A DNA stretch of 64,000 nucleotides from Pecten maximus. Lineage: Eukaryota. Every line of letters begins with the position of its first letter. The stretch's first letter is position 1. The position numbers and the translations under genes are program-made. The stretch lies in NCBI RefSeq assembly GCF_902652985.1, contig NC_047022.1:17298001-17362000 (forward strand), in the 5' to 3' direction. Below, in pieces: positions 9,102 to 46,618 of this stretch. The notes below the pieces were generated by a model. It did not search any database, had not been told where the DNA came from, and saw only the letters and a list, made by a program, of their open reading frames with translations.

Positions 9102-10966
9102 TCAATCTGTAGCTAAATTAGTTTCCAGATCCTGGCTGGTAGATAATCGAGCCTGTTCCATTTCTCTTTTCTTAGCAAGTTCTCGTGTTTGATACGTCTC
9201 TGTGTCGCCTAGCGTCTCAAACTTATCAAACTTTACGTCTGACCTTAATAGAAAGTACATCACAGGAAAAACCACTAAAAACACTATTACAAGTTCTGTC
9301 CCAGTTTCCCCCGTGTCTCTCTTCTGTTTCACTTCCTGTCTTCCTACGTTAGCGTGGAATTCATCGAACTTTTTCCTTTCAGCATTCTTTTTCGCAAACA
9401 CTTCTGAATAGTGAGTACTGAAAAAAAAATTCCAATTTATACATATAGTTCTTGTGACCTGACATGGAAATTATAAGGTAAATATAGTATGATCCTATGT
9501 AATAGGAGATGAAAAATACAACGACCTGACCGGGACTTGAACCTGGGACCTCCAACTCTAGACAGGTTTCTATCAAAACAATACATTTATTTAAATTTGG
9601 TTTATTTTGTTTAACATCCTATTAACAGCTATGTGCCAGGTTTTGGAGGTGGAGGGAAGCCGGAGTACCTGGAGAAAAACCCCTGGCCTACAGTCAGTGT
9701 ACCAGCCAACTGTCCCACGTGGGTTTCAAACTTGTGACCCAGAAGAGGAGGACTAGTGATAAAGGGTCCAGACACCTTTACCACTCGGCCACCGCAGCTT
9801 CACACAGTTTCAATGTGATCTTTGAACATTTCAATCTTTCTGTTATTATTGACATTAGCAGCAATGTTGCTGTTTATCTGGCTTTGTTATAGCAATGTCC
9901 GTTCTATAACCCTTAGCTTGGGGGCATTTACATAATGTTTTATGAGAAAACTTCTAAATTGCAGTGCCAGGGCCAACACTGGGTAAAAACTTGGTTTCAC
10001 CAAAAATGATTTGCATACATGTACAATGTCAGAAAGCTGAGTGCATTGCAAATCTCTTTTTATTTCCATTCTAAAGAATTAGAATTAATGCAAATGTTTT
10101 AATCCAATAAATTCAAAATAACTTTTGAAATACAGTTAAGGTTGTTTTTTTTTCCGAATATTATAAGGGTACATTATTCAAATATTTATGCATTTATTTA
10201 ACAAAAATAAAGAGATACAAAAGTATAACATCTAAACATTTAACCCCAAAAATTATTCATCTAGAAGCAATGCATTTTAGTAGAAAGGGTGATTTTGTCT
10301 TTTATTTAAAATGTTCATTATTGTTATATACTTATTCTGAAATTAGTATATATAAAATAAAAAGTAAAAGGAAATGATACATATATACAGAGACATATAT
10401 ACGTATATATATGTCTCTGATATATAATTATAACAACATAATTAATGGTTGTGATAAAATATAACTGACCTTGTCCACTTATCAAAATCAAAGATTGATG
10501 TTCTACCGCGCATAGGAGGGCCATCATATTTTTTGAAACCCTTTCTGTATGACTTCCATCCATCAGGGTGTCCGGTGTTTCTGAAGTCTTCTTCCACCAA
10601 TCCTTTATCGTAAAGTCTCCGTGATTCTGGTCTTCCCAAAATTTCATATGCTTCCGATACTTCTGCAAATTTTTCAGCAGCATCTTCACTTTTATTGATG
10701 TCAGGATGATATTTTTTCGATAGTCTAAAGTATGCTCCTTTAATTTGAACACCTGTTGCCTTTTGTGACAATTCCAGAACTTCATAAAGATCTTTATCAT
10801 ATTTAGATTTTTTCCTTGGGCCTCGGCGACTGTAACCTCGGTTTATTTTCTGTTGGATAACCATGTTCACTGGAGCGAGAATTAACGGCTGATGCGCTTT
10901 CGATAATGTTTTCTGGGCACACAAACACATCTGTCCTTGTAAATGTCTTGTTAAATATCTATACAT
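9102..10966 (-). CDS. DNAJC30: DnaJ homolog subfamily C member 30-like (mitochondrial J-protein), about 270 aa
   Basis: Coding exons 10966-10470 and 9417-9102, with a phase-2 GT-AG intron that restores the frame (FDFDKWTS/THYSEVF). J-domain YEVLELS..IKGAYFRLSKKYHPD..EAYEILG, basic N-terminal presequence-like region, C-terminal hydrophobic helix LVIVFLVVFPVMYFL. Divergent from BUD23, as human DNAJC30 is. Possible 5'UTR intron about 11021-11290. Confidence 0.85.
9499..9567 (-). mobile_element. 3' fragment of tRNA-containing LTR (family A)
   Basis: Reverse complement reads ..GGAGGTCCCAGGTTCAAGTCCCGGTCAGGTCGTTGTATTTTTCATCTCCTATTACA, matching the B-box and 3' end of 12118-12246. Confidence 0.55.
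9595..9798 (-). mobile_element. tRNA-headed V-domain SINE
   Basis: Reverse-complement homologue of 56385-56603 and 63511-63736, in the DNAJC30 intron. Confidence 0.8.
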
Positions 10967-11734
10967 TTGAGGTCAGAGAAGACTTTTGCACAAACGCGTT
11001 TGTTTAGCAACCTTAGCCTGCTGTAATCCAAACACTAACAGACGTGTACCGTTGCTTCATGTGAATTTTCCAAAAAAAGTACTGTAATTTCTGTCATTGA
11101 CAAACATCTGGCAAGAATGCTTGTTTGTGAAACTTGAGACAGCACAATCTTCGAATAATTCACGGTTAAAAATATAAGACTTCACAACTAAATCTTTTAA
11201 CCGAGTTTCACCTTGTATTCGTCCGTCTGCATACGATCGCTGTCATCCAGACGTTTAGCATACGTAACACTAAATGCAGCCAATACTTACCTAAACAGAA
11301 TTTCCAACAACAAGAAAAAAACGTGTTTATGAACTACCACGTGTTATAGTCTACTGCAGTATATGAAACCGCCATTAACGCGTTTATTAACTAGAATTAA
11401 GTTAGTTTAAACAATATTTATTTGAGAATAAGTAATACAATACAATAAATCAAAAGTATACAAGAGGATTTGGTAACAAGCTTAGAGCTTATGTAAAACC
11501 ATCTCCTTATTAATTATAGACATAGATATAAAGTAGAGTGATCATGGGAATGCTGATGTTAAACAATAATGTTACTGTCCGAGTACTGTTCCTGTTTTCA
11601 TTATTACATATAAAATAATTATACAACAAGTATAAGAGACTAATGTAGTAAAGTTACATTACAGCAGGGACGTATAATAAGATATATGTCCCTGATTATA
11701 GGTACAATGTATTTTACATATGAGAAAACGACTG

Positions 11735-11970
11735 ATCCAAGTAAATACTATGTAATCACTTAAGGACTTTGTAAGCTTTGACTTAGCATAACTATATATA
11801 TTTTTTTTTGTAAGACATAAAAGTACACATGTTCGAGTGATGCGATACATACATACATACATGCATACATACATACATTATGATCCGAGTAGATACTATG
11901 TAATCACGGAAGTACTTTTTAAGATTTGACTTAGCATAACTACAGGCATATATATTGTAAGACATAAGGA
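11735..11970. repeat. Local direct repeat of about 90 bp, split by an (ACAT)n microsatellite
   Basis: GATCCRAGTARATACTATGTAATCAC...TTTGACTTAGCATAACTA...GTAAGACATAA at about 11734 and 11882, with (ACAT)n at about 11846-11878. Confidence 0.7.
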
Positions 11971-12117
11971 TTAGTTATACATCAAAACACCATTAACGTG
12001 TTAATTAACTAAAATTATACATTGTGACAATATTAACGCGTAAATTTTATAATTTATTAAAACGTGCTAAACTTTCTCAAACTTTAAACAACTACAGTAC
12101 ATGGTAAATCATAGTTA

Positions 12118-12310
12118 TGTAGCGGGACTACACTGGGTCGATCATCGGTGACCAGGTAGCTCAATTGGTTGAGCATCCGGCTAGTGTTCGGAGGTCTCGG
12201 GTTCGAACCCCGGTCTGGCCGCTACATTTTCTCCTCTCCTGTTACAAAATTGGCGCCCAACTAAAAAACCCACGGTCGTGGTATAAGGGTCTCGTGTGTC
12301 TTCGAGGGCG
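12118..12310 (+). mobile_element. Miniature LTR element (TRIM) with tRNA-derived LTR, family A: 5' LTR + PBS + truncated internal region
   Basis: TGT...GTTACA 129-bp LTR (12118-12246) containing A box TAGCTCAATTGG (12157) and B box GGTTCGAACC (12200). Followed by TGGCGCCCAAC (12251-12261), the start of the tRNA-Lys1,2 primer-binding site. Confidence 0.7.
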
Positions 12311-13930
12311 TTTACACCTAAACGTGTTTCATTCCTATTGTTTTAAATTTATAGGACTATCTAGCTATATAATAGGCCCATATTGATTAAAACGAAAAAG
12401 TTGTGTTGCATTAGTATGGAGGTAACCCCACAATAAGGTAATTTCCCTAAACTAGTTTAAATTCGCTTTATGGTAAAAATAAAACAACACAATAAAAAAG
12501 TAATTCAATTGAAAGGACCTCAACTAAATAACCTGTGAATTTTGAATTCCTCTCTCATATGTTCTTCACCGACAGGTTAAAATATGGAACATTGTTTTCA
12601 GTTTTTGGGAACATATTAATAAGAGCGCAGCTCATCGCGCCCGAAGGGCGCGAGAGCGAAGCTCTCTTTAAGACAACACGTGTGTAAGCTATATTTCCAA
12701 TCAATTCTATACCCCTTCAACTTTGAAATCGTGTCCCGCGGGAAAAGTCTCGCACCTCCAGTAGAGGCGGCCATGTTTGAAATCTCGTTCCCTACACGAC
12801 GAGATCTAAATGATTTCTCTCTCTCGTCGAAATAAGTAACTGAAAGATAGTTCAAATCACTTAAATGTTACCATTTCTATTTTTCTTTTGTCTGACGAGG
12901 TAAATGTATTTTGCGAATTCGATTGACTTGAGATCATGATTTCGTTGGTTACCTAAATCGGAACCTTCCCACGTTCGGTGCTGATCAATTGGATCCGAGA
13001 GTAGAATAAGAGTATATTTTGCTGCATATGTGCATGATATAGAACAGTTTTTAATTGTATTATCATTGGATAACCACATTATAAGCTCAACTTTCCAGGT
13101 TACAACCGAAAACCCTGAAATATTATTGAGTTGAACATCCCATTCAGAATGGTGCTGTCGTTAAGCGTGACGTCATAAGAATTCAACGTCAAAGATTATG
13201 CCACGGATTCCCGCACTTTCTCAGCGCATATATTTTAAGAGTTTTTCGTCTTCCAGATGTCTGAAATATGTGATATTTTACAGGAAACAATTCAATATCT
13301 TCTGTATTTTCTTAGTGGGTATAGACTGTATCAACTGCAGTAGTTGCTGTAAATTTGTGTCATAAAATGTTATCAAAACTTGTATTCAAATAATAAAATA
13401 CAGTTCATAATTTAAAAAATCTTACTGTGTCGATCTCTTTACACCTTGAACTTAAATTACTGGATATTATGATTAACAAGGCATCGTAAAAAAGAAATGA
13501 TAAGTTACCATTGTACAATGTACAGTGTGTATCAAAGCATTTATGTGAATGAGGAGTTTCCATTCTGTTTGTATTGGTCTAACTTTCCAAAATCTATGAG
13601 ATGTTCAATTACAAACTTCCACATTATAGTTCTCATTGTATAAGTATACAGTGAGGACGTTAAGTATACCAAACATTCACAGGAGAAAACAGACTTTGTA
13701 ATTTGGTTCTTTATGTGGAAAATGAAGCCCACTCACCTTCAGATTTAAATAAAAACATACATGTTTATAATATGTCTCAAATAATAGTTTAAGCGAGTGA
13801 TTTTGCTTCTTGTTACTACAACCATTGACTTTGATATACATACTAGAGTTCTAATATATGTCCGTGCTTCAATAAAAACAAAATCAATACCAAGCCCCAA
13901 CACGTGCATAAAATGAAAGATATAGATAAA

Positions 13931-14345
13931 CGTCGCAAGTTTTAATTGTAAGTAGTTTATAGTGATACGATTGCCTTCTAGCATCGCGTTAGTCCCCTTT
14001 AGCTCAGTCGGTAAAGCAGCTGTACAGTAAAGCCGGGGGTCGCGGTTCGATGTCGGTGGAGACACATTACTTGCTTTTCTGTTACATCGGGTAACCACTC
14101 CAAGTGCAAGCTATATGAAAATGAGAGGCTTCGTTGGGGTTAAAACCTGGGTTAATGTGTGTTCGGGATGAACACGTTTGAAAAGTGAGTAGTGAGGCAG
14201 GTTTTAATTTTAAATTGTGTACATCATGAGTGATTTCTATTGAGGGATTTCCCTTTAACTCAGTCGGTAGAGCGTAGGACCAGTAGGCAGAGAGTCGCAG
14301 GTTCGATCCCCCGTGGAGACAATATATTCGCTTTCCCGTTTTTAT
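13931..14345 (+). mobile_element. tRNA-LTR TRIM, family B: LTR - about 105 bp internal - LTR
   Basis: Two diverged direct repeats (about 13931-14086 ending CTGTTACA, and about 14193-14345). Each has CCCTTTARCTCAGTCGGTA (A box) and GGTTCGAT (B box). The internal region ends in hairpin GTGTTC..GAACAC plus purine-rich GAAAAGTGAGTAG before the second repeat. Confidence 0.6.
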
Positions 14346-14597
14346 GAACATCTTGTTGTATCGTCTGCCATTTTACGTTAAATTGTTAGGCTAGTAGCAT
14401 ATGAAATGTGGCAGTAGAATAGTGTGCCATTATTCAGTGCACATGTCATCACGGACGGGTACGATCTTTTTGAATCCGGCAAAGTAAAGACAATGACAGT
14501 CACATCGGGACAAACAGTAAGAATTTCAGGTGATATACGTATAGATGTAATACATTGTTATTTTTACAAGGTGTTTACATGTTGTTGTTTTTTTAAT

Positions 14598-14628
<31 letters not shown>

Positions 14629-16209
14629 GTATAATTTACAGTCTATATGACATTGTATTGGATTAGGACTTAATATTTGCCTAGTTTGTAGCATATTTTG
14701 CAGACGCGTTGTGTCATTTTTTAAGTTAACATCCTCCCTCCCCCCCCCCCCCCCCCCCCCCCAAAAAATAAATAAAAGAAAATATGGTACATCTTCTTAG
14801 ACTGTCCCTGTGTTTCCTTCTTGATTAACAGTGATCATGAGTGAGTCAGGTGATTATAGCTGCGCTCTTCTAAGGCTTTGCCTTCATTCATATTAAGAGC
14901 GCAGCTCATCGCGCCCGAAGGGCGCGAGAGCGAAGCTCTCTTTAAGACAACACGTGTATAAGCTATATTTCCAATCAATTCTATACCCCTTCAACTTTGA
15001 AATCGTGTCCCGCGGGAAAAGTCTCGCACCTCCAGTAGAGGCAGCCATGTTTGAAATCTCGTTCCCTACACGACGAGATCTAAATGATTTCTTTCTCTCG
15101 TCGAAACAAACAACTGAAAGATAGTTCAAATCACTTAAAAGTTACCATTTCTAATTTTCTTTTGTCTGACGAGGTAAATATATTTTGCGAATTTGATTGA
15201 CTTGAGATCATGATTTCGTTGGTTACCTAAATCGGAACCTTCCCAGTTTCGGTGCTGATCAAATTGGATGCGATAGTAGAATAAGAGGTTTGCTGCATGT
15301 GTGCATGATATAGAACAGTTTTTAATTGTATTATCATTGGATAACAGCATTATAAGCTCAACTTTCCAGGTTACAACCGAAAACCCTGAAATATTACTGA
15401 GTTGAACACCCCATTCAAAATGGTGCTGTCGTTAAGCGTGACGTCATAAGAATTCGACGTCAAAGATTATGCCACAGATTCCCGCGCTTTCTCAGTGCAT
15501 ATATTTTAAGAGTTTTTCGTCTTCCAGATGTCTGTGAAATATGTGATATTTTACAGGAAACAATTCAATATCTTCTGTATTTTCTTAGTGGGTATAGACT
15601 GTATTAACTGCTATTTTTTTTTGTCGTACAATTTTATCAAAATTTGTATTAAAATAATAAAATACAGTTCAGAATTTAAAAAAATCTTACCGTGTCGATC
15701 TCTTTACACCTTGAACTTAAATTACTGGATATTATGATTAACAAGGCATCGTGAAAAAGAAAGGATAAGTTATCATAGTATAATGTACAGTGTGTATCAA
15801 AGCATTTATGTGAATGAGGAGATTCCATTCTGTTTGTATTAGTCTAACTTTCCAAAATCTATGTGATGTTCATTTACAAACTTCCACATTAGTTCTCCTT
15901 GTATAAGTATACAGTGAGGACGTTAAGTATACCAAACATTCACAGGAGAAAACAGACTTTGTAATTTGGTTCTTTATGTGGAAAATGAAGCCCTTTTTCA
16001 TAACTTATCCAATATGCACTCACCTTCAAATTTAAATAAAAACATACATGTTTATAATATATCTCAAATAATAGTCTAAGCGAGTGGTTTTGCTTCTTGT
16101 TACTTCAACCATTGACTTTGATATACATACTGATATACATGTATGCCCGTGTTTCAATAAAAACAAAACCAATACCAAACCCCAACAAGTGCATAAAATG
16201 AAAGATATA

Positions 16210-16607
16210 TAATTGTAAGTAGTTTATAGTGATACCATTGCCTTCTAGCATCGCGTTAGTTCCCTTTAGCTCAGTCGGTAAAGCAGCTGTGCAGTAAAGC
16301 CGGGGGTCGCGGTTCGATGTCGGTGGAGACACATTACTTGCTTTTCTGTTACATCGGTTAACCACTCCAAATGCAAGCTATATGAAAATGAGAGGCTTCG
16401 TTGGGGATAAAACCTGGGTTAATGTGTGTTAGGGATGAACACGTTTGAAAAGTGAGTAGTGAGGCAGGTTTTAATTGTAAATTGTGTACATAGCGATTTC
16501 TAGTGGGGGATTTCCCTTTAGCTCAGTCGGTAGAGCGTCGGACCAGTAGGCAGAGGGTCGCAGGTTCGATCCCCTGTGGCGACAATTATATTCGCATTCC
16601 CGTTATA
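16210..16607 (+). mobile_element. tRNA-LTR TRIM, family B (copy in the duplicated unit)
   Basis: Duplicate of 13931-14345, with tRNA-like cassettes at about 16259-16330 and 16512-16582. Confidence 0.6.
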
Positions 16608-16994
16608 TATGAAAATCTTGTTGTATCGTCTGCCCTTTTACGTTGTTAGTAGCATATGAAATGTGGCAGTAGAATAGTGATGCCAATATTCAGTGCACAT
16701 GTCAACACGGACGGGATATGACATGTACGATCATTTGGAATACAGCAAAGTAAGGACAATGAAAGTCACATCGGGACAAACAAAAAGAATTTCAACTGAT
16801 ATACATGTAGATGTAATACATTGTTAATTTTACAAGGTGTTTATATGTTGTTGGGTTTTTTGTTTTTGTTTTTAAGGATGTATAATTTACAGTCTATATG
16901 ACATTGTATTAGATTAGGACTTTATATTTGCCTAGTTTGTAGCATATTTTGCAGACGCGTTGTGTCATTTTTTTTTAAATTAACATCCCCTCCC

Positions 16995-17029
<35 letters not shown>

Positions 17030-17499
17030 AAAAAAAAAGGAAAAGAAAATATGGTACATGTTCTTTGACTGTTATTCTCATGTCCCTGTGTTTCCTTCTT
17101 GATTAACGGTGAGTGAGTCAGGTGATTATAGCTGCGCTCTTCTAAGGCTTTGCCTTCATTCATATTATTACTAAGCGATAAAATATGTAAAAGATTAATT
17201 AAAATCGACAAATACAACTCAAAGCAGGTTTTGTTGTTCTTTTTTTACGAGGTTCTGTCACCGAATTGGAACAATTAACAGTTAGTAAAACGGCTCCCCA
17301 TATAGTACGCCCATAGATTAGATGGACAAGAAAATTATCTTCCTTTATCATTTTCTTTATATATAATTCGGTGACAACCTTCCATTAAGTGCGCGCAATG
17401 AACGACAACTCTGGATAGAAATTGACCTTGTCGCTTGTTGTCGTCAATTTTACTCAACAATCTATCAGTAAACACTTAGGTGACAAAGATTTCATATAC

Positions 17500-17535
17500 A
17501 TGTACTTCCGGTTTATTCGTCTGGCACGTGGGTCG
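17500..17535 (+). promoter_or_regulatory. Candidate BUD23 proximal promoter motifs (ETS and E-box)
   Basis: ACTTCCGG at 17504-17511 and CACGTG at 17525-17530, about 100 bp upstream of the ATG. Function is inferred. Confidence 0.4.
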
Positions 17536-17621
17536 ACTTGTCAATAACAATCATGTTGAATACGTAATACAATACGTTATATTTCTGATATTTTTAGATC
17601 ATTTATTTAAAAGATTTGGTT

Positions 17622-20600
17622 ATGGCCCACTCGTCGTCTGGAAGGCCCGAACGACAGGCCCCTCCTGAAATTGTAAGTAAAATGTAAATATAAATCATCG
17701 TTCAGTCAATATTTTTCTTCTACATTTTATTGGCATCATACGTATGCCAAGACTGTCTTTGTAAAGGGACTATTGATAAGACATTTTAATGTAAAGTAAA
17801 CCCCCGTGTTTAAATATATTTTGGCTATACAGCAGGCATAAACTATAATTTAGAAGACTTTCAGGTGCTTGGTTCAGATACATATGCACAGGGGCGTGAC
17901 ACATTTTACGCCCAGAAGTGCAGAACCCTGGCCTGTCCAAGCATTTTCCACTCGACTTACATTTGGTGCCTGTGACCAAACATATTACCTTGTTTCAAGT
18001 ATTAGGTGAATACTTTACTTGACAAGGTTACCTGAACCTGTGTTATGAGTTGTTAGGTCTTCGGGGTCAAAGACTTAAAAGGGAGGGAAGAGTTATGCAG
18101 AACTGGATGGTGTTGTTCGTCTGAGACAAGGTAGCTCATTTGGTAGAGCATCCGGCTAGTCTTCGGATGTCTCGGGTTCGAACCACGGTCTGGCTGTGCA
18201 TTTTTCAACTCCTCTTACACATGTACAGATGATGTATGCAATTGGCATTTGCTGTAGAACTCCAACACCTGTGCCATTGTATGTATCATAATAAACTCAG
18301 ATACTTTATTTTGATATACAATACACCAATTGTAAGGTTAGGTACTGATCTGGTCGTTCCATTTTCCCTCTTCTATTACACACAGTAGCTTGGCACAAAT
18401 TCTCAACCCGCAGTCCATTATATAGATTGGGTGCCGTAGATCGTGAGGTTGAGGCCCGGTCAGGGCACAAGTCAAAAAGTTGTCTTCCTTCGTCATTTGT
18501 GTTGCTAAATTATATGCATATGTAAATATATATATATATATATATATATCTATTTTTAAAATTCATATCTGTTTTTCTTTCTGGAGAGTTACTACTGCTG
18601 AGGGTTGGACTTCAAGAATTCCCCCGAGGGTTAAGATTTCTTTGTCACACTCCCTAGGTACTGGGTAGGGAAAGGTTATTTTTCTCCCACCACTGTCTGT
18701 TTGTAAGCAAATGCACATGGTCGGTGTACACATATATATCCTCATTTGAAGAAGCACCCATCCCACCCACCCACACACACACAATTGCATACCAATATCT
18801 TAACACAAGAAAATAAAGGTTTAAAATCAATTCACAATATTTATTCAAAAAGACGCTAAAATAAGGTGTCAGTGATACTTTTCCGACGTTAACAAGAGTA
18901 CATCTTGTCTCATTGCATAAAACTTTTGTCTCTTATGTACATTTAACATTAAATAACAACGCGGGAACTATAGTGACATCTACATTGTATCAAAGAGTAG
19001 TTCTGTAAGTACTTCTGGTTTAGAAGGTTAAAGCATGCAATCTGTCATACCTTAGGAGTTGACGGAGAATTCTCTCACATCTAAAACTGAAGATAAATCG
19101 GTGAACTGTGGGAGAGTAGAGGGTCCATCTAGAGTTCAAAGGGTGAAGTCCCGGTCTAGTTATTCACAATGTATTTTCCTCTCCTACCTATCACAGCCAT
19201 CAACTTGCGTAACAATTAAATTTGAAATAATTCTGTTTCTGAAGATAAAGTGAACCTATTCAAACAATATTAGAAGTGGCATGACAAGAAAATGATTACG
19301 GGGCAGTAGTTAAAAAAAAAAGTCAAATGTTAAATCTGACCACCAGTGGCCTCTTATGTTATAGGAGTAATGATACGCCATGTGTGCTTTTCAGATCTAG
19401 GATCTTCTATATACATTGTACATGTATTAAGAACATTCAAACGAAGGAAATTCTCAGGATTTGACCTGTAGAGGTTTATCAGAATGTACAGTATATACAT
19501 ATAATGTACATGTATTGTTTTTTATGTTCTGTTGTTATTTTCAATGTTCATTTCTTTTCTGTCAATTCAGTTTTATGGTGAAGATGAAGCCAGAAAATAC
19601 ACATCAAAGTAAGTTGGAAAGCATCAATTCAAACATATATATCTAGAGATAATAAGGTCAAAGATGTTCTAGACTTTCTCAATTGATTTAAAATAAAGTT
19701 ATGACACATAATTACACAATAATGTTGTGTGACATCTAGACTTGTTATATTGAAAAATGAGTCTGAGAGAGGACATGAGATTACTGTATGTCACATTTTA
19801 GTCGGTAAAGTCATGTTTCATTGCTGTCACTTTTGCATTATATCACAGACTTACAAGTTACTAATCTGTGATTACATTATTGCCCCAGTACTCGTATGAT
19901 AGAAATTCAAAGTCAACTCTCAGAAAGAGCTATGGAGTTACTACGGCTACCGGAGGATCAGCCATGTTTTATTTTGGATGTAGGGTAAGTATTTCGGTAT
20001 TTGTTTCGTAAGACTTACTAACCCTACACACATACAGTAGAGTCTGTTACCATGGTTACTTACTAAATTAGTTATAATGTATCTATATTTGGGATGTTTA
20101 GTACAATATTTCATGAGTATACGTATTTTTAGAAATTTAGAAATTCTGACATGGGCTTCTCCTTATATGATGTTGATAATAGTATGTGGACTGCTAATTA
20201 GAAATTACAAAAATTAAGGGGTTGGATGTTGACAACTGTTAAAATTTATTTGCTAATTTTGATTTTATTTGTCAAAATTGAGAAACCATCCTACTAAACT
20301 GAAGTCTGTCAAACATCACTTAAAAATTATGTTTAATCAAATTTGTGATGATGATTTTTGGCTAGGTGTGGCTCTGGCCTGAGTGGCGAAACTCTGACAG
20401 AACAGGGGCATTTCTGGGTCGGAGTGGATATCAGTTCTCATATGTTGGGTAAGTAAGAAACATGTTTAATACATATAGTAACATGCTCAACACATACTGA
20501 TCTTTTCCGAGAATGTCTTTAATATAAGATTGGAGTGAAGGATGTTGACATCCTCTGGGTGAAGTCATAGATATGATTTACACTGTATCATAAAAATAAT

Positions 20601-23600
20601 AGAATAATGTAACATTTCACAAGAGAATTCAGAAGGGTTTTGAGTACTGTACATGAATCCGAGATGAATAAAATACATGTTATGTTATTCTTTCCCCTGC
20701 AGTACAGTTTGAAGTTGTACCATTAAATTTACATGAAACATTTTAACAAAATTTCAAAAGTTTATTGTCATCACTTCCTTGCTGATTTCAGACGTGGCTG
20801 TTGAGAGGGAGACTGAAGGAGATCTTGTTTTGGGAGATATGGGCTACGGAATGCCCTTCAAACCAGGAACATTTGATGGCGTCATTAGGTATTAATGTAC
20901 AGAATATATTTGTTTACGGTCCCCGGGTGGAGCAGAGGAAACACACACACCTTTCACCTGACCTGGGTTTGATTCCCCAATTGGACATGAAATTGTGTGA
21001 TAGTCATCTGCCTGACCGCAATAAGACTCCTTGTGCACTTTTTTTCTTCTGACCAAGATTGATTAGTAATACATGTACATGTAGTTGATTTCACTTGTTC
21101 ACAATTATAAAAAAATCTTATCTATAAGTTATTTAAGGAGATATCAATTCAAGGGTAGTTGATGGCACTAAAACTGGAAATAAAAATAAAATATGATTTA
21201 ATAATAATAAAAGAAAATGAAAACATACACAATACACATCAAATTGTAATTCTTTATTTTACGTTCATTATGAGAGGCAATGATGTATAAATATGCTAAT
21301 AAACATAACGAAACATCTTTTAAGTGATTACTTACAGCCCTGTGAAGCATAACACATTTAAAGGATTCCACTTTTTCAGAAAGTCCATTCAAATTATACA
21401 GAGGGACTCCATTTATGAAATTCTCAGCAAAAACCCTTTTATATTTTTGTGATATAATAGGATGATGAGTGTTTATTTTTATTTTTCAGCATATCTGCTC
21501 TTCAATGGCTCTGTAATGCTGACAAAGCCTTCCACCATCCACCGAAGCGACTTCTTAAATTCTTCAGTACACTATATGCCTGTCTGGTAGGTCTGCCAGT
21601 CCTTGTACATGACAAATCATTCTGTGTGTGTGTGAATTTCCTTTTTCAAAACATGATTCAGTGTATTGTTTAACAAGAAATACTTTTGTTAGATCTGAAA
21701 AAAATTGTTTTGAAATTTTCAGCAGTAGATATAAAAATTGAATGTTTATTTTTTGCAGACACAAGGTGTCTTTGAGACAGAGATTTATTTAATTATTCTT
21801 TTAATAGCGTATTGAACTAAATCCTTTCAATAATTTAAAAGTTAAAATAAATGTTTCTACATTCCATGTTTCCAGAGTAGGGGAAGCCGTGCTGTGTTTC
21901 AGCTTTACCCAGAAAACAGCTCACAGGTTTGTACTTTGGTCGGATTTACTCTGATAAAGGTGGTCACTGGTGAACACTGTGACAATTTTCTGATAAAAAT
22001 GAACAAATTTCAAATTTAAGATTGTTTTTATCAAAAGACTGTCTAAAATAAATTCAGAGAAAGTAGGAATTGACATCTTGAGGAAATGATTTATATTTGA
22101 AATCTCAAAATTGTCAGATATTTTCATTATGCAAGAGGTGATCACCTTTTACATTGTTTTCTTTGCAATGAAATTATTTCTCTAATTATCTGTATTAAGT
22201 GTGAAGTGATACTCAAGTCATGATGTTTCAAGTCAAACGTAGTGATCTTTTCTATCAACATACAAGTTAGTTCTCGGATAGTGAAAGAGAAAAATTGCAT
22301 CAATATTTGACTCCGGACTGTGGAATTTGTTGAAAATTAGTACATTATTTTGTACTTTCTTTTTCATAAGCACATTTCGAAGATTCTGCAGAAAGTGAGA
22401 TGATAAACAAAACTGCAATTTTGTGTGGTATATTTGTGTGGCGAGTGAGAGCCCTCCTGTGTAGGAACACAGTGTATATATATATATGAAGGCTGATTCC
22501 AAGGCCCCAATTTTGACAGCCTTCCAACGTATACAGGTCTAGGCAATAAAATGTTTTGTGCTTGTGATAAAAATGAATGCAATTTTTGTTTCAGTTAGAG
22601 CTAATCACACAACAGTCTATGAAAGCAGGATTCACTGGAGGCCTGGTGGTCGACTACCCAAACAGTACAAAGGCCAAAAAGTAAGTTTAAAGATGTGGCC
22701 TACTCTCGGACATGTGATATATTGTAGGAAGTATGGCTTTGTCTCAAATGAGATTTTGTAACCAAATATCGGCCCTTGACTGAGAGTATTAGAACCAATC
22801 AAGATAACAGGTTCAGTTACAATATTTATCCAGCAATAAGCCTGTGTCTGAAAATAAACTTACCCATGTCCGGGGCTTACTCCTTGAATATTTTATAAAT
22901 GGATCCTTTCAAGATTACATGGAGCCTTTCTGTATAAATCGAATGGAAGTGGGTACACTTATTGTATCCCAATATTTAAAAGGCTTTGGCAATGATTTGA
23001 ATGCAAATATGTCCAATACAGTTTAATGAAACTGCTATTGGCCTGTAATAAGCCGTTGCTTTGAGTTTAGGTTTTGTATATTTTATCCTCTTCCCTCCAT
23101 TGAGAAAGATTTTGTTTTAGACCCACTGGGCTTATCGCAGGACAGTTACTGTAATATGCAATATTTAAAACCTCCCTTTTGTATTTTTGTAGGATATTTC
23201 TGTGTCTGTTTGCTGGTGGTCAGCCACAACAGTTACCAAAGGGACTGGGAACAGAGGTTGGCAGTAGTCAGGGACAACAGATCGACTTCAACACCAAAAG
23301 GTAAAGTTATACAGTTATACAGCTAAACTGAACAAGCTTGAAAGCTGGAGGCCAGATACCTCAAATGGTTGGAGCATCCGTCTAGAGTTTGGAGGTCCGG
23401 GTTTATGCCCTGGTCTGGTCGTTGTAGTTTTGACTCTCCTGTTACGTTATGCATCCAACTTAATACCCATGGAAAGTGATATACGGTCTTGTGTGTGTCT
23501 TTGGGGTTGAAGACCTTGTTGAATGAGGGAGGAATGCAGTGGAATTGGTCTGGGCTAAACACCAGTGGCCAGGTAGCTGAAGTGGTTGGAGTTCAGAAGT

Positions 23601-24613
23601 TCCAGGCTGAAGTCCTGGTCTGGTTGTTACAGTTTCCCTCTCCTGTTACACAAACTTTTATTTTTTTTACAACCATAATGACAAAACATGCCATTGGCAA
23701 TTACAAGGTATTATCCTGAAGGGTATTTAAAGCTGTAGATTAACTGCCTTCATATACATGTAGTTTGTTATTTTCGCTGACTTTTTACAATACAACTGTG
23801 TCACCCTAAAGATTCCACAGAGCCATGGGTTTTATGTACAAACATTTAGTGTCTATGCAGATATTTGTTTTCTAAACTGAGCTTATAGCAAAATATATTG
23901 GTTATACATTAATATCAAAAAATGATTCTCAGCTTCAAATCTTGAGAAAATATAAGTCTTCAGATCGAACAGCAGTAATAGTTTTAAATGAAATTATAAA
24001 AAAAAATATTTCAGGGAGAGGATGAAGAAACTGCGAGGTGCCAAATCTGCAAAGGGAAGCAGAGATTGGATCCTGGAGAAGAAAGAGCGTCGGCGAAGAC
24101 AGGGGAGGTAAGTCATGGAGAAGTATCGTAACAGCAGTATGTGGCAGAACTTTACACCCCTCCCTGATCATAGCTTTTATCTGTTGTTAAGAAGTGAAAT
24201 AGACAAATAGTATCAGTGAAAAATATGTTAATTAATATCTGTAAACTAGGGCATCTTCAATATAATTACCGAAGTGTTATCTTGGAGTATTGGTCATCAC
24301 AATGTTCGAGTACATGGGTCGGTTCATTACAGACAGAAAGTCCAGGACAACTAGTAGCTACACCCCCTTTGCAAAAAAGTATTACTCCTATTAAGTGTTC
24401 AGTGCCACTTCTTCTTATCAATTCTTCTAAAACTGATCTCCCCTTGATTGGATATTGAGCTAAAATTTATGTGATTTTAAAATCTTAATCATTAATTTTT
24501 ATAGCAACATAGCGAGAATAATCATTGTAAAGGTCTATTTTTTGTGTCTTTATTACAGAGAAGTCCGACCAGATACCAAGTACACTGCAAGGAAGAGGAA
24601 GGTCAAGTTTTAG
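17622..24613 (+). CDS. BUD23: 18S rRNA guanine-N7 methyltransferase BUD23/WBSCR22, 284 aa
   Basis: Eleven GT-AG exons: 17622-17672, 19571-19608, 19889-19984, 20366-20448, 20792-20888, 21490-21586, 21876-21926, 22595-22680, 23193-23300, 24015-24107, 24559-24613 (855 nt, in frame). Motifs [89 protein letters not shown]. Confidence 0.97.
18057..18219 (+). mobile_element. tRNA-LTR TRIM family A: internal 3' end + PPT + 3' LTR
   Basis: Hairpin GTCTTC-GGGGTC-AAAGAC, purine tract AAAAGGGAGGGAAGAG, then the cassette GGTAGCTCATTTGGTAGAGCATCCGGCTAGT..GGTTCGAACC..CTCCTCTTACA. Lies in BUD23 intron 1. Confidence 0.65.
23345..23650 (+). mobile_element. tRNA-LTR TRIM family A: degenerate LTR - internal - LTR
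   Basis: First repeat ends CTCCTGTTAC (23445). The internal region is homologous to 12247-12310 and has hairpin GTCTTT..GAAGAC and PPT GAGGGAGGAA (23525-23534). Second repeat runs TG(23535)...CTCCTGTTACA(23650). Confidence 0.65.
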
Positions 24614-28800: not shown

Positions 28801-31800
28801 GTGGGTTGGGAATCGCACCCAGTCCCTGTGATCTTTTGTAATATATGGACTGTGGGCTCGGAATAGCACCCAGTCCCTGTGATCTTTTGTAATGTATGGA
28901 CTGTTGGTTGGGAATCCCACCCAATCCCTGTGATCCTTTGTAATGTATGGACTGTGGGTTGGGAATCGCACCCAGTCCCTGTGATCTTATGTAATATATG
29001 GACTGTGGGCTCGGAATAGCACCCAGTCCCTGTGATCTTTTGTAATGTATGGACTGTTGGTTGGGAATAGCACCCAGTCCCTGTGATATTTTGTAATATA
29101 TGGACTGTGGGTTGGGAAAAGCACCCAGTCCCTGTGATATTTTGTAATATATGGACTGTGGGCTCGGAATAGCACCCGGTCCCTGTGATCTTTTGTAATA
29201 TATGGACTGTGGGTTGGGAATAGCACCCAGTCCCTGTGATATTTTGTAATATATGGACTGTTGGTTGGGAATCGCACCCAGTCCCTGTGATATTTTGTAA
29301 TATATGGACTGTGGGTTGGGAATAGCACCCAGTCCCTGTGATATTTTGTAATATATGGACTGTTGGTTGGGAATCACATCCAGTCCCTGTGATATTTTGT
29401 AATACATGGACTGTTGGTAGGGAATAGCACCCAGTCCCTGTGATATTTTGTAATACATGGACTGTTGGTTGGGAATCACACCCAATCCCTGTGATATTTT
29501 GTAATACATGGACTGTTGGTTGGGAATAGCACCCAGTCCCTGTGATATTTTGTAATACATGGACTGTTGGTTGGGAATAGCACCCAGTCCCTGTGATATT
29601 TTGTAATACATGGACTGTTGGTTGGGAATCACACCCAATCCCTGTGATATTTTGTAATATATGGACTGTTGGTTGGGAATCACACCCAATCCCTGTGATA
29701 TTTTGTAATACATGGACTGTTGGTAGGGAATAGCACCCAGTCCCTGTGATATTTTGTAATACATGGACTGTTGGTTGGGAATCACATCCAGTCCCTGTGA
29801 TATTTTGTAATACATGGACTGTTGGTAGGGAATAGCACCCAGTCCCTGTGATATTTTGTAATATATGGACTGTTGGTTGGGAATCACACCCAATCCCTGT
29901 GATCCTTTGTAATATATGGACTGTTGGTTGGGAATCACACCCAGTCCCTGTGATATTTTGTAATACATGGACTGTTGGTTGGGAATCACACCCAATCCCT
30001 GTGATATTTTGTAATACATGGACTGTTGGTAGGGAATAGCACCCAGTCCCTGTGATATTTTGTAATACATGGACTGTTGGTTGGGAATCACATCCAGTCC
30101 CTGTGATATTTTGTAATACATGGACTGTTGGTAGGGAATAGCACCCAGTCCCTGTGATATTTTGTAATATATGGACTGTTGGTTGGGAATCACACCCAAT
30201 CCCTGTGATCCTTTGTAATATATGGACTGTTGGTTGGGAATCACACCCAGTCCCTGTGATATTTTGTAATACATGGACTGTTGGTTGGGAATCACACCCA
30301 ATCCCTGTGATCCTTTGTAATATATGGACTGTTGGTTGGGAATCACACCCAGTCCCTGTGATATTTTGTAATACATGGACTGTTGGTTGGGAATCACACC
30401 CAGTCTCTGTGATATTTTGTGTTGCGTTGTCTTTACCTTGTATGTAATATCCATCTCTCAGACGTCCATATTTCTCCTGCCCTGCAGTATCCCACACATC
30501 AAACTGAATTTCACCGCGGGTCGTGTAAAACTTCATTGGATGTACCTCAGCACCGATAGTAGCTACAAAACAATGATTATCCCGGATACAATATACATGT
30601 CACCCTGTGATGAAGAAGATTGTCCATAGCGTGAAAGGTATTGATGAGAAGGAGGAGGAGATATATATCAAAACATTTTGAAACTTATTTTCATAATGGT
30701 TAGGAGAAGGATTGTTTTGTTTTTATGGGTGAGGTGTATTGAGTCAATGAAGATGATGATACATGATGGTACCCATCCACATACAATATTCTAGGTGTGG
30801 AAGAAAATGTGTGTGTGGATCTTTATGTAATGTAAACAACTTCAAAATGTTTTTAAAATATATATGAAAAAAAAAAAAAAGGGGGGGGGGGTAAAAAAGA
30901 AATATCCTTGGGGAAAAAGAAAATAAGTAACTCTAAACCACAATACACTGAGAAATTGCTGCAATGTTCCTTCATGAATCACATAGTGTAGTATAATATA
31001 ATATAATGATATGTAAACAATGTTTATCCTCATTTTTTTCGCTGCCAATAGTTAAAATGCTTCTATTGTGTGTGCTTGTAGATACTGTGGTGCTTATGAG
31101 GTCAAATACAGTATACGACCTTGAGGTTGTTTAAAGTTCCTAGATTGCAGTATACAATAGTATATGTTAACTCAGAGCATTATTTAAATAATAGAATTAA
31201 GGTAATCTCGGGACCAAAATTTTTCGTTTTTTAATTATATTCTTTTAAAAATGTTGTGTACTGGAGACTTATTTCAGAATGAATACCCGATATATACAAG
31301 GTTTCACTTTACTGCACTCCCGCTTACCTATATACTTCTTTTCAAATTCTCCAGTCAAATGGCGTTTCACAAAAGTTGTTTTTCCAACGCCACCATCACC
31401 CACTACGATCAGCTTTAAATGTAAACAAGAAAATTAAAATAAGTGTCTACAAATCTTCAATTTCTATTGAAATTAACACAGATATAATAACAACACAGTT
31501 GGTCAAGACTTTCCTTTTTTTGTTTATCTGCCATGTTTCATATTGTTCCATTAACAATGAAAAAAAGTTACATCGTATATATCACAGGGGCTTGGCACGA
31601 TTTTCCAAATGATAGTCTATATATATATGTATATGTATAAATTATTTTTTTTAAAATACGTTCGTCTTCCCCCTCTTTGTAGTTACTACCCTTGATACTA
31701 TATACATATATATATGGACTATCATTTGGAAAATCGTGCCAAGCCCCTGTGGTATATATATACATACAGATTTCTGGTGAAATACATTGAGGATTCAATG

Positions 31801-31965
31801 GAGCACAGAGGTTCGTTACAAATGATATGATATCGCTAAATGTACAGCCCCTCTCATATATCATACCATTTGTATATATATAACGAACCCTGTGAATTCA
31901 TTTGTTTTTAGTTTTTTTTTTATATACATGCTTACCTTAAATTTGGGAACTGTCGGTGTAGCCAT
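25827..31965 (-). CDS. RAN: Divergent Ran GTPase paralogue (Ran-like), 215 aa, intact
   Basis: Coding exons 31965-31936, 31412-31328, 30562-30437, 27677-27490, 26437-26261, 25868-25827 (648 nt, all GT-AG, same intron positions as the neighbouring Ran). Motifs [23 protein letters not shown] and acidic tail LPDDDDDF*. Confidence 0.93.
26748..27360. repeat. 41-42 bp minisatellite, about 15 copies (Ran-like intron between coding exons 4 and 5)
   Basis: Unit GACACCTACCCWCCTATGACCCTAGCTGTTGATGTCTCCTT, with variant and partially deleted units at the right end. Confidence 0.95.
28370..30420. repeat. 51-bp minisatellite, about 40 copies (Ran-like intron between coding exons 3 and 4)
   Basis: Unit GTGATATTTTGTAATACATGGACTGTTGGTTGGGAATCACACCCAGTCCCT. 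It explains the 593-aa and 614-aa repetitive ORFs. Confidence 0.97.
31583..31751. mobile_element. MITE with long TIRs in TA-rich context
   Basis: CACAGGGGCTTGGCACGATTTTCCAAATGATAGTC / GACTATCATTTGGAAAATCGTGCCAAGCCCCTGTG form perfect 35-bp inverted arms that extend inward into TA-rich sequence. Confidence 0.8.
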
Positions 31966-36425: not shown

Positions 36426-40676
<4,251 letters not shown>

Positions 40677-41110: not shown

Positions 41111-42039
41111 AACAGGAAAGAGTAGTGTGCCTTCAGGATTCATCATGGATCAGACTCGAGACCCTCCACTTACTTGTCTGTGAAGCTAAATGGAAATCCC
41201 CATAGAAGGCCATCATATCACAATAAGTATGACTATTTAAAATTAAAACCTGCCACAGGATCTGGACTAATGCCTCATAGAACATGCATTTGCAGCACAG
41301 CGAATGTGATGGCAAGTGAGGACTACTGCTAACTGGTATTAAAAAATATAACCTAGTTGTGTCTCAAACAATAACTCGTTGGCTTCTCCCCATTGTTTTT
41401 TTTCAACAGCAAAAACAGTATCAGATTCCTTACCTCTGTTGTTATAAATGGTCGACAGCGCCAGAGTCAAAACGCAATATTTCTTTTTTTTCATCACATA
41501 AGTTACTTACCAGTGAAGTTGTTAGTACCAAAAGTGATCGCCTATTTCAAATTCACTTGTCAACTGGTGGACACTATGTAAGTTAAAATTTTATTGTGTA
41601 ATGTTTAAATGTGTAAATTGCGTACAGATCCGGCAAAAACCAAAATAAACCGGTTTCGCAATAAGGTGTTCACTACATAAATAGAAATCACGTGTATAAA
41701 TTAGTTTCAATATTGTAAATCAAAACAGCACGTCAAAGACAATATCTTACAATAATCATGACAAAACGTCTATGAATAGAGTTAAGAAAAGGGACGACGT
41801 GCATATTCTACGTAACAAAGAATTATACGGGACTTTCCAGAATGGTTGGTAAAAATATGTATCTGAAAATCCCAAATTACGACTTTTTGAATAATAAAAT
41901 TAAGTTAATTTTATCTGAAAAATATCTATTTACAAAATTGCTAACACAAGTAATTCAAACAAACGATGATTACGTTGATATTCCTGGATTAAACCTTACC
42001 ACTAGTCAGGTGAAATAAATACCGCTCTGTGATGGATTA

Positions 42040-42250
42040 CTCAAACAGGAAGTTGGTGTTTAAGCTATTTTTGGCGCGAAAGAGGGTGCAATATTATCAG
42101 TATGACCACAAATATTGACAAATGTAGTAAATAATTATGAATATTTGGAAGTTACAGATTAATGCACGATTCACAATGCTTAAATATTGTTCAGTTATTA
42201 AGACACGAATATTTTATACCTCGGAAGACCGGAAGTAGGAAACACCACAT
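42040..42250. promoter_or_regulatory. Candidate bidirectional promoter between Ran and syntaxin-1
   Basis: TTTGGCGCGAAA (42070-42081, E2F consensus), ACAGGAAGT (42045) and CCGGAAGT (about 42229) ETS motifs. They lie between the Ran 5' donor (about 41999) and the STX ATG (42417). Confidence 0.55.
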
Positions 42251-42416
42251 CGCACCTGCGCAAAACTGTTGTAATGGTTTCATGGTAGACAATATTAAAA
42301 TTGTATTGATCTTACATGTTTTATCGCAAGTCATGAAGCTTATATGACTCCTGGAACGTTTATTTTACCGTTTTACACCATCTGCGACAAGTTAGGTTAA
42401 AAACCTTCCATGCAAG

Positions 42417-45400
42417 ATGACCAAAGACCGACTAGCGGCTTTAAAGGCGGTAGGTTTCTAAATCCTCAGCATCTGTATCAACTGTGAACTTGTCGATGTC
42501 TTCCTCATAAACGAGATTTGGACCCTGTGTGCATTCGAAATTTCTGAACGGAATTTTAGTGATTTTCCTGCTGGGAGTTCTAATACTTGTGGATTAACAG
42601 AAGTTTAAGCGTGTTTTCCTGGTCGAATGTTGTTTTTGTTTGTATAATCCCCACCCATTAAACCGATTTGCCGGTGTATATGTTTAGCAATGATCAGGCC
42701 ATGTCTATGTATTCATTATTATAGATGTTACATTACACACTCGGTCATACTGTACAGTATTAGTCATGTGTTTTTATGTCCCTGTCATTGCCAATTTTAC
42801 GATAAAATGAAATATCTAATATTTGTAACAAATACATGTTAATTAAATGTTGTATTTGTCATAAATTAATTTCCTGTTAAACCAAAAGAGAACAATTATT
42901 TTAAGTGTGCACAGGAAAGACCTCTTTTATCAAGGCCTATCTCATATTGCAGCTTAAAATGAAAATGGGTTGAAAAAGTCTTAATACCAAGTCAGAGATG
43001 AAACTGTCTCATGACATCTGATCTCTGATTATAATGATGATTGGGCGTATCCTATATTATTCAAAATAAAATGTAAGTCATGCTACACCTTCTTTTTTTT
43101 GGGGGTGGGGGGGGGGGGTCGTATCTTTGAATGATTTTCTTATCTCATTCGGTTATCACAATCATCTGTTGTTTCAATTAGTAAATTTAGGTTAACAGTT
43201 AATGTGTTTTTTTTATGATATTTGCATCCTCTGAAAAATTTGTTTCGAAAACTTATAAGCATTGGAAATAGTTCAACAATATAAACTGTTTAGTAAAGGA
43301 TGGGGAAATGTATACATATGTAATTCCAAAGGGTACCAAATAAATAGTCATTGAAATTTTTAAGTGAAATATATATTGTTAATTCAGTTATGGACTTTGA
43401 TATATATATCTAAGTCTGTGATTGAGTTGAATAAAACAAGCAAGAACAGCTGTCCGAATTAACATATTAGGCCTTAATCTCAGTTTACATCCCAGGTAAG
43501 TCAGACATTTAAAAAAAAAATTAAATATATTCTTTTACAATAAGGTAACATGGAATCTTTAAAGGGATATTCCTCAGAAGTTGCAAACTTTATTGATCTG
43601 TACCTTTTAAGAGATCTTTCTAAATTAGACATTTAAATAAAGCTATTGACCACGTCAAAATATTCTTCCTGTAATCAAGTGAAAGTGGTGGGAATACCCC
43701 TGGCCAATATAAAATTAGACTGCCCAGGTTTTATGCAAAATATTGGGCAAATACACAAGTTTTTTTGTTTTTTTTATACTTTAAACTTTTTTAAGGGATT
43801 GCATTTTCATCGCTTCATTCGGCTTATTTCCTGCCAATTTTACAATGTATACCAGTATATCATACAGTTCATGGGTGTTAATATAGCCCTATTTATTTGC
43901 TGTTTATAAGTAAATTTTCCCAGCAAAATTATTTCCCCTGGCCTAGCTAGTAAAAGTTCCTCAAGTTACCTATTAATTCCCCCCATTCCCAATAATTAGG
44001 CCTGACAACTTTATTTACATTCAACCAAAATCAATATCATCTCATTGGATATTTAATATACTTAGATCACCTATGCTATAGATGCTCATTTATAAAATCA
44101 GCTGGAAAAACCTAGCAATCATATTGTACTATACTGAAGTGGAAGAATATATATAGCCCCCTATAGCTAGCTAGCTAGTGCATGGCCTTTTGCAATTGGA
44201 AATCGGGGGTTTCCCCCTAGATAATGAAAGGGGTATTTTCCCCTAAATTCTGCCTTGGTGCATGAGTTAGGCTCATACAATGCAACCTGCTATGATGGAA
44301 TCAGGGACCATATATATGAAGTTTATAGATCCATCTAGGTAGATATATAATATTTCCACAAATTACCATCTTTGTTTATTACAGTAAATTGAGGCATACA
44401 TGTACAGTTTCCATAAGAACTAAGAAGATTCTTTTGTAAATGAAATTTCAAACTAGTATGAAATATTCCTTTAATAGCCCTTAAATTGAAAATGAATAAA
44501 ACTTTAATTTAGGGTAGTCTCAAAAATAGATCAACAGTAGAGGTACAGTATTTTTATGCCTAATGTGTGACTCCCATATGATATATAGAATGAACCTACA
44601 GAAAACATAAAAATATTGAATACTCTTTAGATTTTTCTTGTTATAAAAGCTGATGATTGTTTTAAACAAGAATTTTTAACTGCATTAATTTAATTCATAA
44701 TCAAATATGGTGTAAAATTACAGAAAAGGTAATGACAGTATTGTAAATTTAGATCAATGAGAGCTAGTAGTATGTATAATGATTGTAATATATACAACGT
44801 ATGTATTGTATATATGATACCATACAGTATTACGATACACCTGAGCAATTTACCTGCAATATTCTTCTATAATGATAATACTGAGGAAAGTAAGAAAGAC
44901 TGATGAAATCTAGTGTGTTTATATTTAGAAGTGTCCAGCTCAATTCTATTGTTTTGTTGAAAGATGTTTTTGTTCTAAAATTAAAGGAGACAAAGGGATC
45001 AGACACAAGTTATCATAGCGCCCTCTCTATGTACAATAAAATATATACTGCAACATACAATAGACCTAGAGTCCTACAAAGCAGAAATTTATCTAAAATC
45101 TTTTACTGGACTTGATGTAATGGTCTAAAAATATCCAATCTTTAAAGTGATACATACATGTAAATTTAAAGTATATTATGATAATCGTGACTTATTAAAT
45201 TTCGTGCAACTCCTCTTATTTTTGTTAGATTTTGTGGACCTACATCTGTTTTGATGCATAAAAAGTAGATTCAAATTGAATGTGTCAAGTCATGTAACCT
45301 GACTCAATTTTCATGTAATCTATAAGTTACGGGTACATTTCACATATACACACCATGAGATACCATACCACAGTAAATGATATGTCTTTGTTGTATGTCC

Positions 45401-46618
45401 TGGCTTTTATGGGAGTTAGATTACTAGTATCAACAGATACCTGGGAATTAGGCCAAAACTTTCCCACAAAATGGATCTGCATCCATTTGAAACAAGATCT
45501 TTAATATTTAATTTTCTTTAGGAAAAAGTAATATGCTGTCATAGAAAATAAGGTTAAAAGAAATATTGATAATTTTAAATGGTATCACAGTTCAGCATTA
45601 AGGATGTTTGGCCACGGTCTGTTTCCCAAATGGGATTTTTTTTCACCTGGTAATGAAAATGCAATGCATTATCTAAATATTTAAATTGAAGTATATGATC
45701 TTTTCTATAAATTTTTAATCTCAAGTAAAACTGAGCAAAAAGAATGATTTCTGGTTATTCAAATAAAAAAAAAAATCAGTATTTCAATACCAAAGGTCTT
45801 CTTTCCACACCCATTGCAAGACTTTGAGCAAATGAAGAAAAAGAAAACAGAAAAATTGCTTGAAATCATACTACAGATTTGTAACATATCTACTGTGGGT
45901 ATGACATATTTTTATGGCTAAAGGGGAAATAGGGAACATTGTGATTGTTCAAGAATTGTTTTAAAAATCAATAAAGGTGTCAAAGCAGCCATCCTCTAGT
46001 GCCAAAACAATTAAGACAAATCTCCAGGAGGGAAAATTGGACATAAACTTTTTTTTTTTAATTCCTAAAATCCTTACAATGGTTTAAGTAAAACAGTGTT
46101 TAAATTTGTATTGAGACAGTGATGTGACTGTTTGTATTATATTTGGTTGTTTCAAATATAATTAAAAAGTTTTCTTCTCTTGAAAAATATTTAAAATTTA
46201 AAATATGTCAAGAAAATATGACAATATACATGCCATAAATACAGATTTTCATGTAGAAAGTATCTTGCACTCCTTATTTTGCGAACAAAACACTATATGC
46301 AAGTTAACTAGTTGAATTTTTTTTTCTTATTTTGATTTGAAACATATCGGAGTAAAATTGCTGTTTGATCTATCTAATTACATCATTATACAGTAGTGAC
46401 ACATGTAATACTGTTTTGTAAGACATGTTTATTCAATATGTGAATTTATTCTATTTTCATTTTCAAAATAAATAATTTTATCTTACCTGTATAATTATCT
46501 CTTAGTTACTTAGATTCACTTGTTGATTTTACTGTAGGCACAAAGCGACGATGAAGAAGCTGATGATGTTGCCGTTAATGTGGATAGTAGTGGGTTTATG
46601 GAGCGGTTCTTCGGACAG
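42417..46618 (+). CDS. STX1A: Syntaxin-1 (Syx1A-like), first two coding exons; the gene continues beyond the window
   Basis: Exon 42417-42449 MTKDRLAALKA and exon 46538-46618 AQSDDEEADDVAVNVDSSGFMERFFGQ, both with GT-AG phase-0 junctions. Matches the invertebrate syntaxin-1 N-peptide. The next expected exon (V[ED]EIR...) was not found before 64000. Confidence 0.93.

Follow-up and report, generated by a model that had tools for sequence, protein, structure and literature searches.

A gene block of DNAJC30, BUD23, Ran and syntaxin-1 in the scallop Pecten maximus, probably inherited and built from two published head-to-head pairs

Background

Two ancient head-to-head gene pairs have been described that meet in a 64,000-nucleotide stretch of the genome of the scallop Pecten maximus (NC_047022.1, positions 17,298,001 to 17,362,000; G000:C8:17298001-17362000, hereafter the window), in which DNAJC30, BUD23 (WBSCR22), two Ran genes and a syntaxin-1 gene (STX1) follow one another. 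In the text of Coppola et al. 2018 (PMC6177115), Ran adjoins Stx1 in Nematostella, Lottia, Saccoglossus and amphioxus; its human neighbour is Stx2, and in fishes Ran1 lies next to Stx3a. Ran-Stx had been reported earlier as a conserved ancestral microsyntenic pair by Irimia et al. 2012 (PMC3514665), in whose account ancient gene pairs are enriched for the 5'-5' orientation. The supplement of Davila Lopez et al. 2010 (PMC2871058) lists DNAJC30-WBSCR22 as a 5'-5' pair separated by 115 bp in human and retained in mouse and three fishes. A Pfam-level row of the same supplement gives a DnaJ gene and a WBSCR22-type methyltransferase as convergent in Drosophila, Anopheles and Aedes. In chicken, DNAJC30, WBSCR22 and STX1A are consecutive, the last two with overlapping coordinates (Table 2 of PMC13560938), and a catfish synteny comparison names WBSCR22 in the dnajc30a block (PMC4277396).

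A reading of the letters alone, hereafter the sequence-only reading, had proposed that this cluster keeps an arrangement older than the vertebrate genome duplications, which vertebrates split by reciprocal loss, and that shared promoters may have held the pairs together. The two human pairings that it started from, RAN with STX2 and DNAJC30 head-to-head with BUD23, agree with the published accounts. The scallop block has DNAJC30, BUD23 and an STX1-type gene in common with the Williams-Beuren core of amniotes; however, that core lacks Ran and has STX1A at the 3' end of BUD23, where the scallop has Ran. Human DNAJC30, BUD23 and STX1A are likewise consecutive, and in vertebrates STX1A lies against the 3' end of BUD23.

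Gene order and orthology in the scallop

Exon-chain models with canonical GT-AG borders and open proteins gave the order DNAJC30(-) BUD23(+) Ran-like(-) Ran(-) STX1(+), and these intact models bear out the order and orientation first proposed. DNAJC30, BUD23, Ran-like and Ran lie wholly within the window and are intact, and the exons of STX1 run past its end (Table 1). The extent of about 38 kb that had been claimed holds for the stretch as far as STX1 exon 2, but not for the whole block: STX1 runs on to about G000:C8:17418700, so that the block with the full STX1 spans about 112 kb. The Ran paralogue is the only gene that comes between the four unrelated genes, within the limit of at most four intervening genes used by Irimia et al. 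2012.

We read the scallop run as an inherited block in which two old head-to-head pairs are joined tail-to-tail at BUD23/Ran, and would put the probability of this at about three in four. Scallop Ran is head-to-head with syntaxin-1, as in the published Ran-Stx pair (Irimia 2012; Coppola 2018), and Stx2 or Stx3 takes that place in vertebrates. The text and S3 figure of Coppola et al. (PMC6177115) show neither BUD23 nor DNAJC30 in the parts available, whereas the scallop block holds both and a second, diverged Ran as well. The other pair consists of the same genes in the same 5'-5' orientation as the DNAJC30-WBSCR22 pair of the PMC2871058 supplement.

The J protein appears to be an orthologue of DNAJC30, as had been supposed, judging by its named relatives and its domain architecture. 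The model is identical to the named P. maximus protein P0001, its nearest named relatives are DNAJC30 proteins, and it has a J domain with HPD, followed by the post-J motif of the family and, at the C terminus, a hydrophobic stretch. Among human J domains in PDB its best match, by a small margin, was WBSCR18, as DNAJC30 was formerly called (E 8.2e-15 vs 8.7e-14 for DNAJB1), bacterial and yeast J domains in PDB outscored WBSCR18, and the J-protein tree was built without human J-protein outgroups. The best matches of the SNARE exon of STX1 were squid syntaxin and syntaxin-1A, with no STX2, STX3 or STX4 chain among the 30 PDB matches listed. The syntaxin-1 class is used here in the sense of the tree given in the text of PMC6177115, as the ancestor of STX1A, 1B, 2 and 3 as opposed to syntaxin-4/11.

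Neighbours of BUD23 in other animals

Outside scallops, every link of the chain has support, though not within any one animal. Metagenome contigs scanned with a BUD23 alignment yielded 550 relatives, and the neighbour counts given here rest on the 80 loci that were listed. The animal part of the tree holds 32 of these 80 loci, 10 of which carry at least 1 kb downstream, enough for Ran to be looked for, and 10 at least 600 bp upstream, enough for DNAJC30. Ran was tail-to-tail with BUD23 in 3/10 loci (L068, L076 and L099). It follows BUD23 directly in L068 and L076, at 250-260 bp from stop to stop, and PEX3 stands between the two in L099, a genomic contig of 91.6 kb. The Ran proteins of all three loci grouped with a named mite (UFBoot 95) and were therefore counted as one lineage. 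A chimeric origin of L068 and L076, as transcript contigs, was considered and rejected, since the two are diverged (5% in the stop-to-stop interval) and share the junction, and the genomic L099 agrees with them. As the mites show, the BUD23-Ran join of the scallop is the protostome state. DNAJC30 was head-to-head with BUD23 in one of the 10 testable loci, L070 (profile E 2.7e-37), with 137 bp from ATG to ATG. The BUD23 of this locus groups with none of the mollusc, arthropod or annelid sequences; L070 is probably non-bilaterian and, at a guess, a cnidarian.

Among scallops, neighbouring accession numbers place Ran-like (...593), DNAJC30 (...595) and BUD23 (...599) close together in Ylistrum, BUD23 (OWF56623) with Ran (OWF56625) in Mizuhopecten, and DNAJC30 (...312) with BUD23 (...313) in Argopecten, where Ran-like is on the contig of BUD23, 1,777 accession numbers away. 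Outside scallops, 7 of 19 DNAJC30 representatives carried a name, and the comparison of accessions with BUD23 covered Lineus and two Mytilus species; two large Ran clusters held arthropods and fungi, with one usable species.

Several of these results weigh against an inherited block. The three Ran-positive loci come from mites alone, and no Ran was seen in 7/10 of the animal loci that extend far enough downstream, among them L100, which is the sister of L099 and has 10 kb to either side; L061 and L063, which have identical BUD23, may be concatenated and are weak negatives. DNAJC30 is absent from 9/10 animal loci with upstream sequence, and for L070 the lineage is not fixed, the atlas look-up having confirmed the family of the L070 protein but not its lineage. 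Syntaxin occurs in 0/80 of the listed BUD23 loci, the gene upstream of Ran in L099 is not a syntaxin, and all four genes together were seen in no genome outside scallops. Ran and BUD23 are on different contigs in Anopheles nili, as are DNAJC30 and BUD23 in Mytilus trossulus, whereas M. edulis has both on one contig; in Lineus the two share a chromosome, 773 accession numbers apart, which decides neither way. A join of BUD23 with Ran or Stx1 is found in three lineages (scallops, mites and, via STX1A, amniotes), against an Irimia-type threshold of four or more major lineages. Against the same threshold, DNAJC30-BUD23 linkage is found in molluscs, vertebrates and L070, with dipterans at the Pfam level only. 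The linkage expected in other invertebrates is present in the mite-like contigs, but the block is not universal.

In the arthropod-like loci L058, L075 and L113, BUD23 is tail-to-tail with another close neighbour (one an FGGY kinase by Pfam, two named by eye); a close 3' partner of BUD23 is common even where Ran is gone.

History of the block

By a rough estimate, a given named gene would come to lie this close to BUD23, at most two genes away, with a chance of about 2 in 1,000 in each lineage even on a shared ancestral chromosome, and inheritance is therefore the simplest reading of the joins. The block would go back to the protostome ancestor at the least, and probably to that of bilaterians. 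Since STX1A, and not Ran, adjoins the 3' end of BUD23 in vertebrates, an inversion is required there, and the vertebrate line would have inverted either the Ran-Stx unit or STX1A alone. After genome doubling, DNAJC30-BUD23 would have stayed with STX1A, while Ran stayed with STX2 and STX3. The pre-duplication arrangement put forward in the sequence-only reading is supported in part by the orthology of BUD23, Ran, syntaxin-1 and the J protein and by the BUD23-Ran join of mites, but the scallop order is not simply the pre-duplication one, as it takes one inversion to reach the vertebrate state. Reciprocal loss likewise fits the published vertebrate pairings, most simply after the first genome doubling, but it involves four regions rather than two, with Stx3 beside Ran1 in fishes. 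The fourth paralogous region is that of STX1B.

The strongest competing account is that the two old pairs met independently, as BUD23-Ran in protostomes and as BUD23-STX1A in vertebrates, by shuffling within one ancestral chromosome. The genes that face each other, and their orientation, do differ between scallop and vertebrates, and the support for the join includes neither a deuterostome invertebrate nor a cnidarian. Furthermore, one scallop chromosome carries genes of both human regions, though not side by side; VPS37-like and BCL7 genes share it with the block at distances of 26.5 Mb and 3 Mb, respectively. However, the same two units would have had to become neighbours twice among some 1,000 genes of a linkage group, at roughly estimated odds of well under 1% each time, and one inversion is a simpler account of the difference. 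We therefore regard an independent meeting as improbable and retain the inherited block.

A stronger version of inheritance would hold that a pre-bilaterian DNAJC30-BUD23-Ran-Stx1 block gave rise to the Williams-Beuren core, that the join was held by an interlock of the BUD23 3' end with Ran in protostomes and with STX1A in amniotes, and that human BUD23 and STX1A share inherited 3' regulatory sequence; we consider this doubtful and offer it tentatively.

The four genes were not found as one block in the literature searched, although the table of pairs in Irimia 2012 may already list a wider group. The available part of the Robert 2022 supplement (PMC8851819) has 0 rows for WBSCR22, BUD23, DNAJC30 and STX1A, and the Simakov 2022 supplements have 0 occurrences. 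In block 9841 of the Robert supplement, OXCT1 of Lingula and Crassostrea is accompanied by a syntaxin whose paralogue is not given, and this block was not used. Both head-to-head pairs are thus already published, and the BUD23-Ran join and its support from mites appear new.

Spacing of the two pairs and the shared-promoter idea

The start codons of scallop DNAJC30 and BUD23 are 6.65 kb apart, as opposed to 115 bp between the human genes and 137 bp in L070, and well beyond the spacing of under 1 kb that defines a bidirectional promoter. Dispersed repeats take up about 5.2 kb of this distance (Table 1), so a shared promoter is not required for this pair. For the larger repeat, the first 783 bp gave 209 candidates in the genome, of which the 40 scored were 82-97% identical, which makes at least 40 copies. 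This repeat looks young; it contains tRNA-like segments, and one end is GC-rich and hairpin-like. A motif scan placed an ETS-like site at 17504 and an E-box at 17525, upstream of BUD23. The pair was probably compact at first, like those of human and L070, and then outlived being pushed apart.

Contigs from 3/4 runs join the DNAJC30 intron, three of the four runs being only guessed to be RNA. The 5' contigs of DNAJC30, from two studies, stop at 11032 and 11138 with no loose end and no splice to an upstream exon, and the lack of contig cover at 11232-11359 carries no weight as evidence. We also considered a DNAJC30 that starts beside BUD23 with the repeats within its first intron; no such splice was present in the contigs, a weak hint since contigs cannot fix a start, and this model was set aside, though DNAJC30 may have a further exon upstream.

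The Ran-STX1 interval differs from this. The predicted donor of Ran is about 420 bp from the ATG of STX1, with E2F- and ETS-like sites between them and start sites placed from the sequence. Only two ETS-like matches occur in the window, one at the 5' end of BUD23 and the other in the Ran-STX1 interval, against a background of 0.039 per kb. The E2F-like and ETS-like motifs follow the usual definitions. Ran and STX1 probably still share one promoter in the scallop, and the proposal of shared promoters thus suits this predicted interval but not DNAJC30-BUD23, separated as it is by repeats.

Each pair may persist because two needed genes start close together, leaving few harmless breakpoints between them; Ran-STX1 would still share one promoter, and DNAJC30-BUD23 would no longer need to. 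The join between the pairs would be the weak link, broken many times and held together largely because the 3' ends are close and rearrangement is slow. Such a scarcity of harmless breakpoints where two 5' ends are paired seems to us a better explanation than co-regulation of the four genes together. That the whole block is one co-regulated unit, with shared promoters or enhancers in every lineage, would suit the short 5' gaps (115 bp in human, 137 bp in L070 and a predicted 420 bp or so in scallop Ran-STX1) and the enrichment of ancient pairs for the 5'-5' orientation (PMC3514665), but is highly improbable given the repeats between scallop DNAJC30 and BUD23, the continued splicing of DNAJC30, whose contigs stop near 11.0-11.1 kb (a weak hint), the convergent DnaJ-methyltransferase pair of Drosophila, Anopheles and Aedes in the PMC2871058 supplement, the frequent breakage of the join and the unrelated jobs of the four genes.

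The Ran-like gene

Of the 5 matches in a genome search for Ran, 2 were strong, and these two loci lie inside the window. Ran-like and Ran are 70.6% identical and have all five introns in common, in phase, and Ran-like appears from its gene model to be a complete tandem paralogue, duplicated at the DNA level and not a fragment. It may have a non-coding first exon near 32336, judging by a donor site. Orthologues are kept in Ylistrum and Argopecten, with 86-88% identity across the three scallops; for comparison, Ran is 92.7% identical between Pecten and Mizuhopecten (177 positions), and BUD23 95-98% among scallops. The clade of Ran-like was placed in the Ran tree with a support of 47, and the gene would be a later tandem copy within scallops.

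In switch II, all three Ran-like copies are altered at the positions aligned with Phe72 and Gly74 of vertebrate Ran (standard numbering). The scallops have these switch II changes in common, one at the NTF2-binding phenylalanine and the other from glycine to arginine, together with changes in switch I and near the basic patch; the acidic tail is kept. NTF2 is bound by Phe72 of Ran (PMC4758718), and since this position is changed, nuclear import by Ran-like is predicted to be altered. Ran-like is possibly a specialised Ran. The Drosophila Ran-like duplicates (Mirsalehi et al. 2021, PMC8645118) are similar in that a diverged second Ran is retained beside the conserved one. However, most of the fly copies are described there as retrogenes that evolve fast and have testis-enriched expression, with a possible link to meiotic drive, whereas the scallop copy arose in tandem and retains all five introns. 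Minisatellite arrays occupy 26760-27360, 28380-30420 and 59240-60250 of the window, the first two within introns of Ran-like.

Features and flanks of the block

Table 1. Features in and around the gene block, in positions of the window
Feature	Position	Strand	Details
DNAJC30	9102..10966	-	2 coding exons (10966-10470, 9417-9102), 270 aa; J domain (PF00226), C-terminal hydrophobic stretch
Dispersed repeat between DNAJC30 and BUD23	11400..11880	.	many 79-94% copies elsewhere in genome G000
tRNA-derived SINE-like repeat	12110..12310	+	ARAGORN tRNA-Thr at 12150-12222; 94-97% copies genome-wide
Two tandem copies of dispersed repeat	12618..17167	.	about 2.3 kb each, 91% alike (self-comparison)
BUD23 (WBSCR22)	17622..24613	+	11 coding exons, 284 aa; PF12589 on exon 10; named BUD23 relatives
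Ran-like	25827..31965	-	6 coding exons, 215 aa; equals named Pecten maximus protein P0155
Ran	36426..40676	-	6 coding exons, 216 aa; PF00071
Predicted compact divergent promoter	41999..42416	.	donor of probable non-coding Ran exon 41998; E2F-like 42070; ETS-like 42229
Syntaxin-1 exons 1-2	42417..46618	+	ATG 42417, exon 2 46538-46618; gene extends beyond window

On one side the block is flanked by a sulfotransferase and a chitin synthase gene and on the other by a Tcp10_C (CENPJ-type) gene; the wider Williams-Beuren order is therefore not kept in the scallop. Upstream of the chitin synthase (G000:C8:17185000-17258000) there is a tandem array of genes that, from inspection of their open frames by eye, are of the RING/B-box (TRIM-like) type and have NHL-like ends. 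The CpG ratio is low over the bodies of BUD23 and STX1, as expected of gene-body methylation. About 47 kb separate exon 2 of STX1 from the next exon found (window 46619 to G000:C8:17391296). One STX1 exon occurs in two tandem versions with matching splice sites (17408361-17408469 and 17408907-17409015 on G000:C8), likely to be mutually exclusive. A second syntaxin, at G000:C4:34935861-34936277, has one long open frame of 305 aa and is probably intron-poor.

Significance of the block

The block is real, probably ancestral in its gene content, and built from the two published pairs. Hundreds of such ancient pairs are known, and the gain is therefore incremental, a modest extension of known ancient microsynteny. 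If the inherited block is true, the two pairs would be tied into one, the STX1A, STX2 and STX3 regions would provide a worked case of reciprocal loss, and part of a human disease region would be traced to an invertebrate neighbourhood. The scallop also offers a natural test of the shared-promoter idea, one pair having been pushed apart by repeats and the other having stayed compact.

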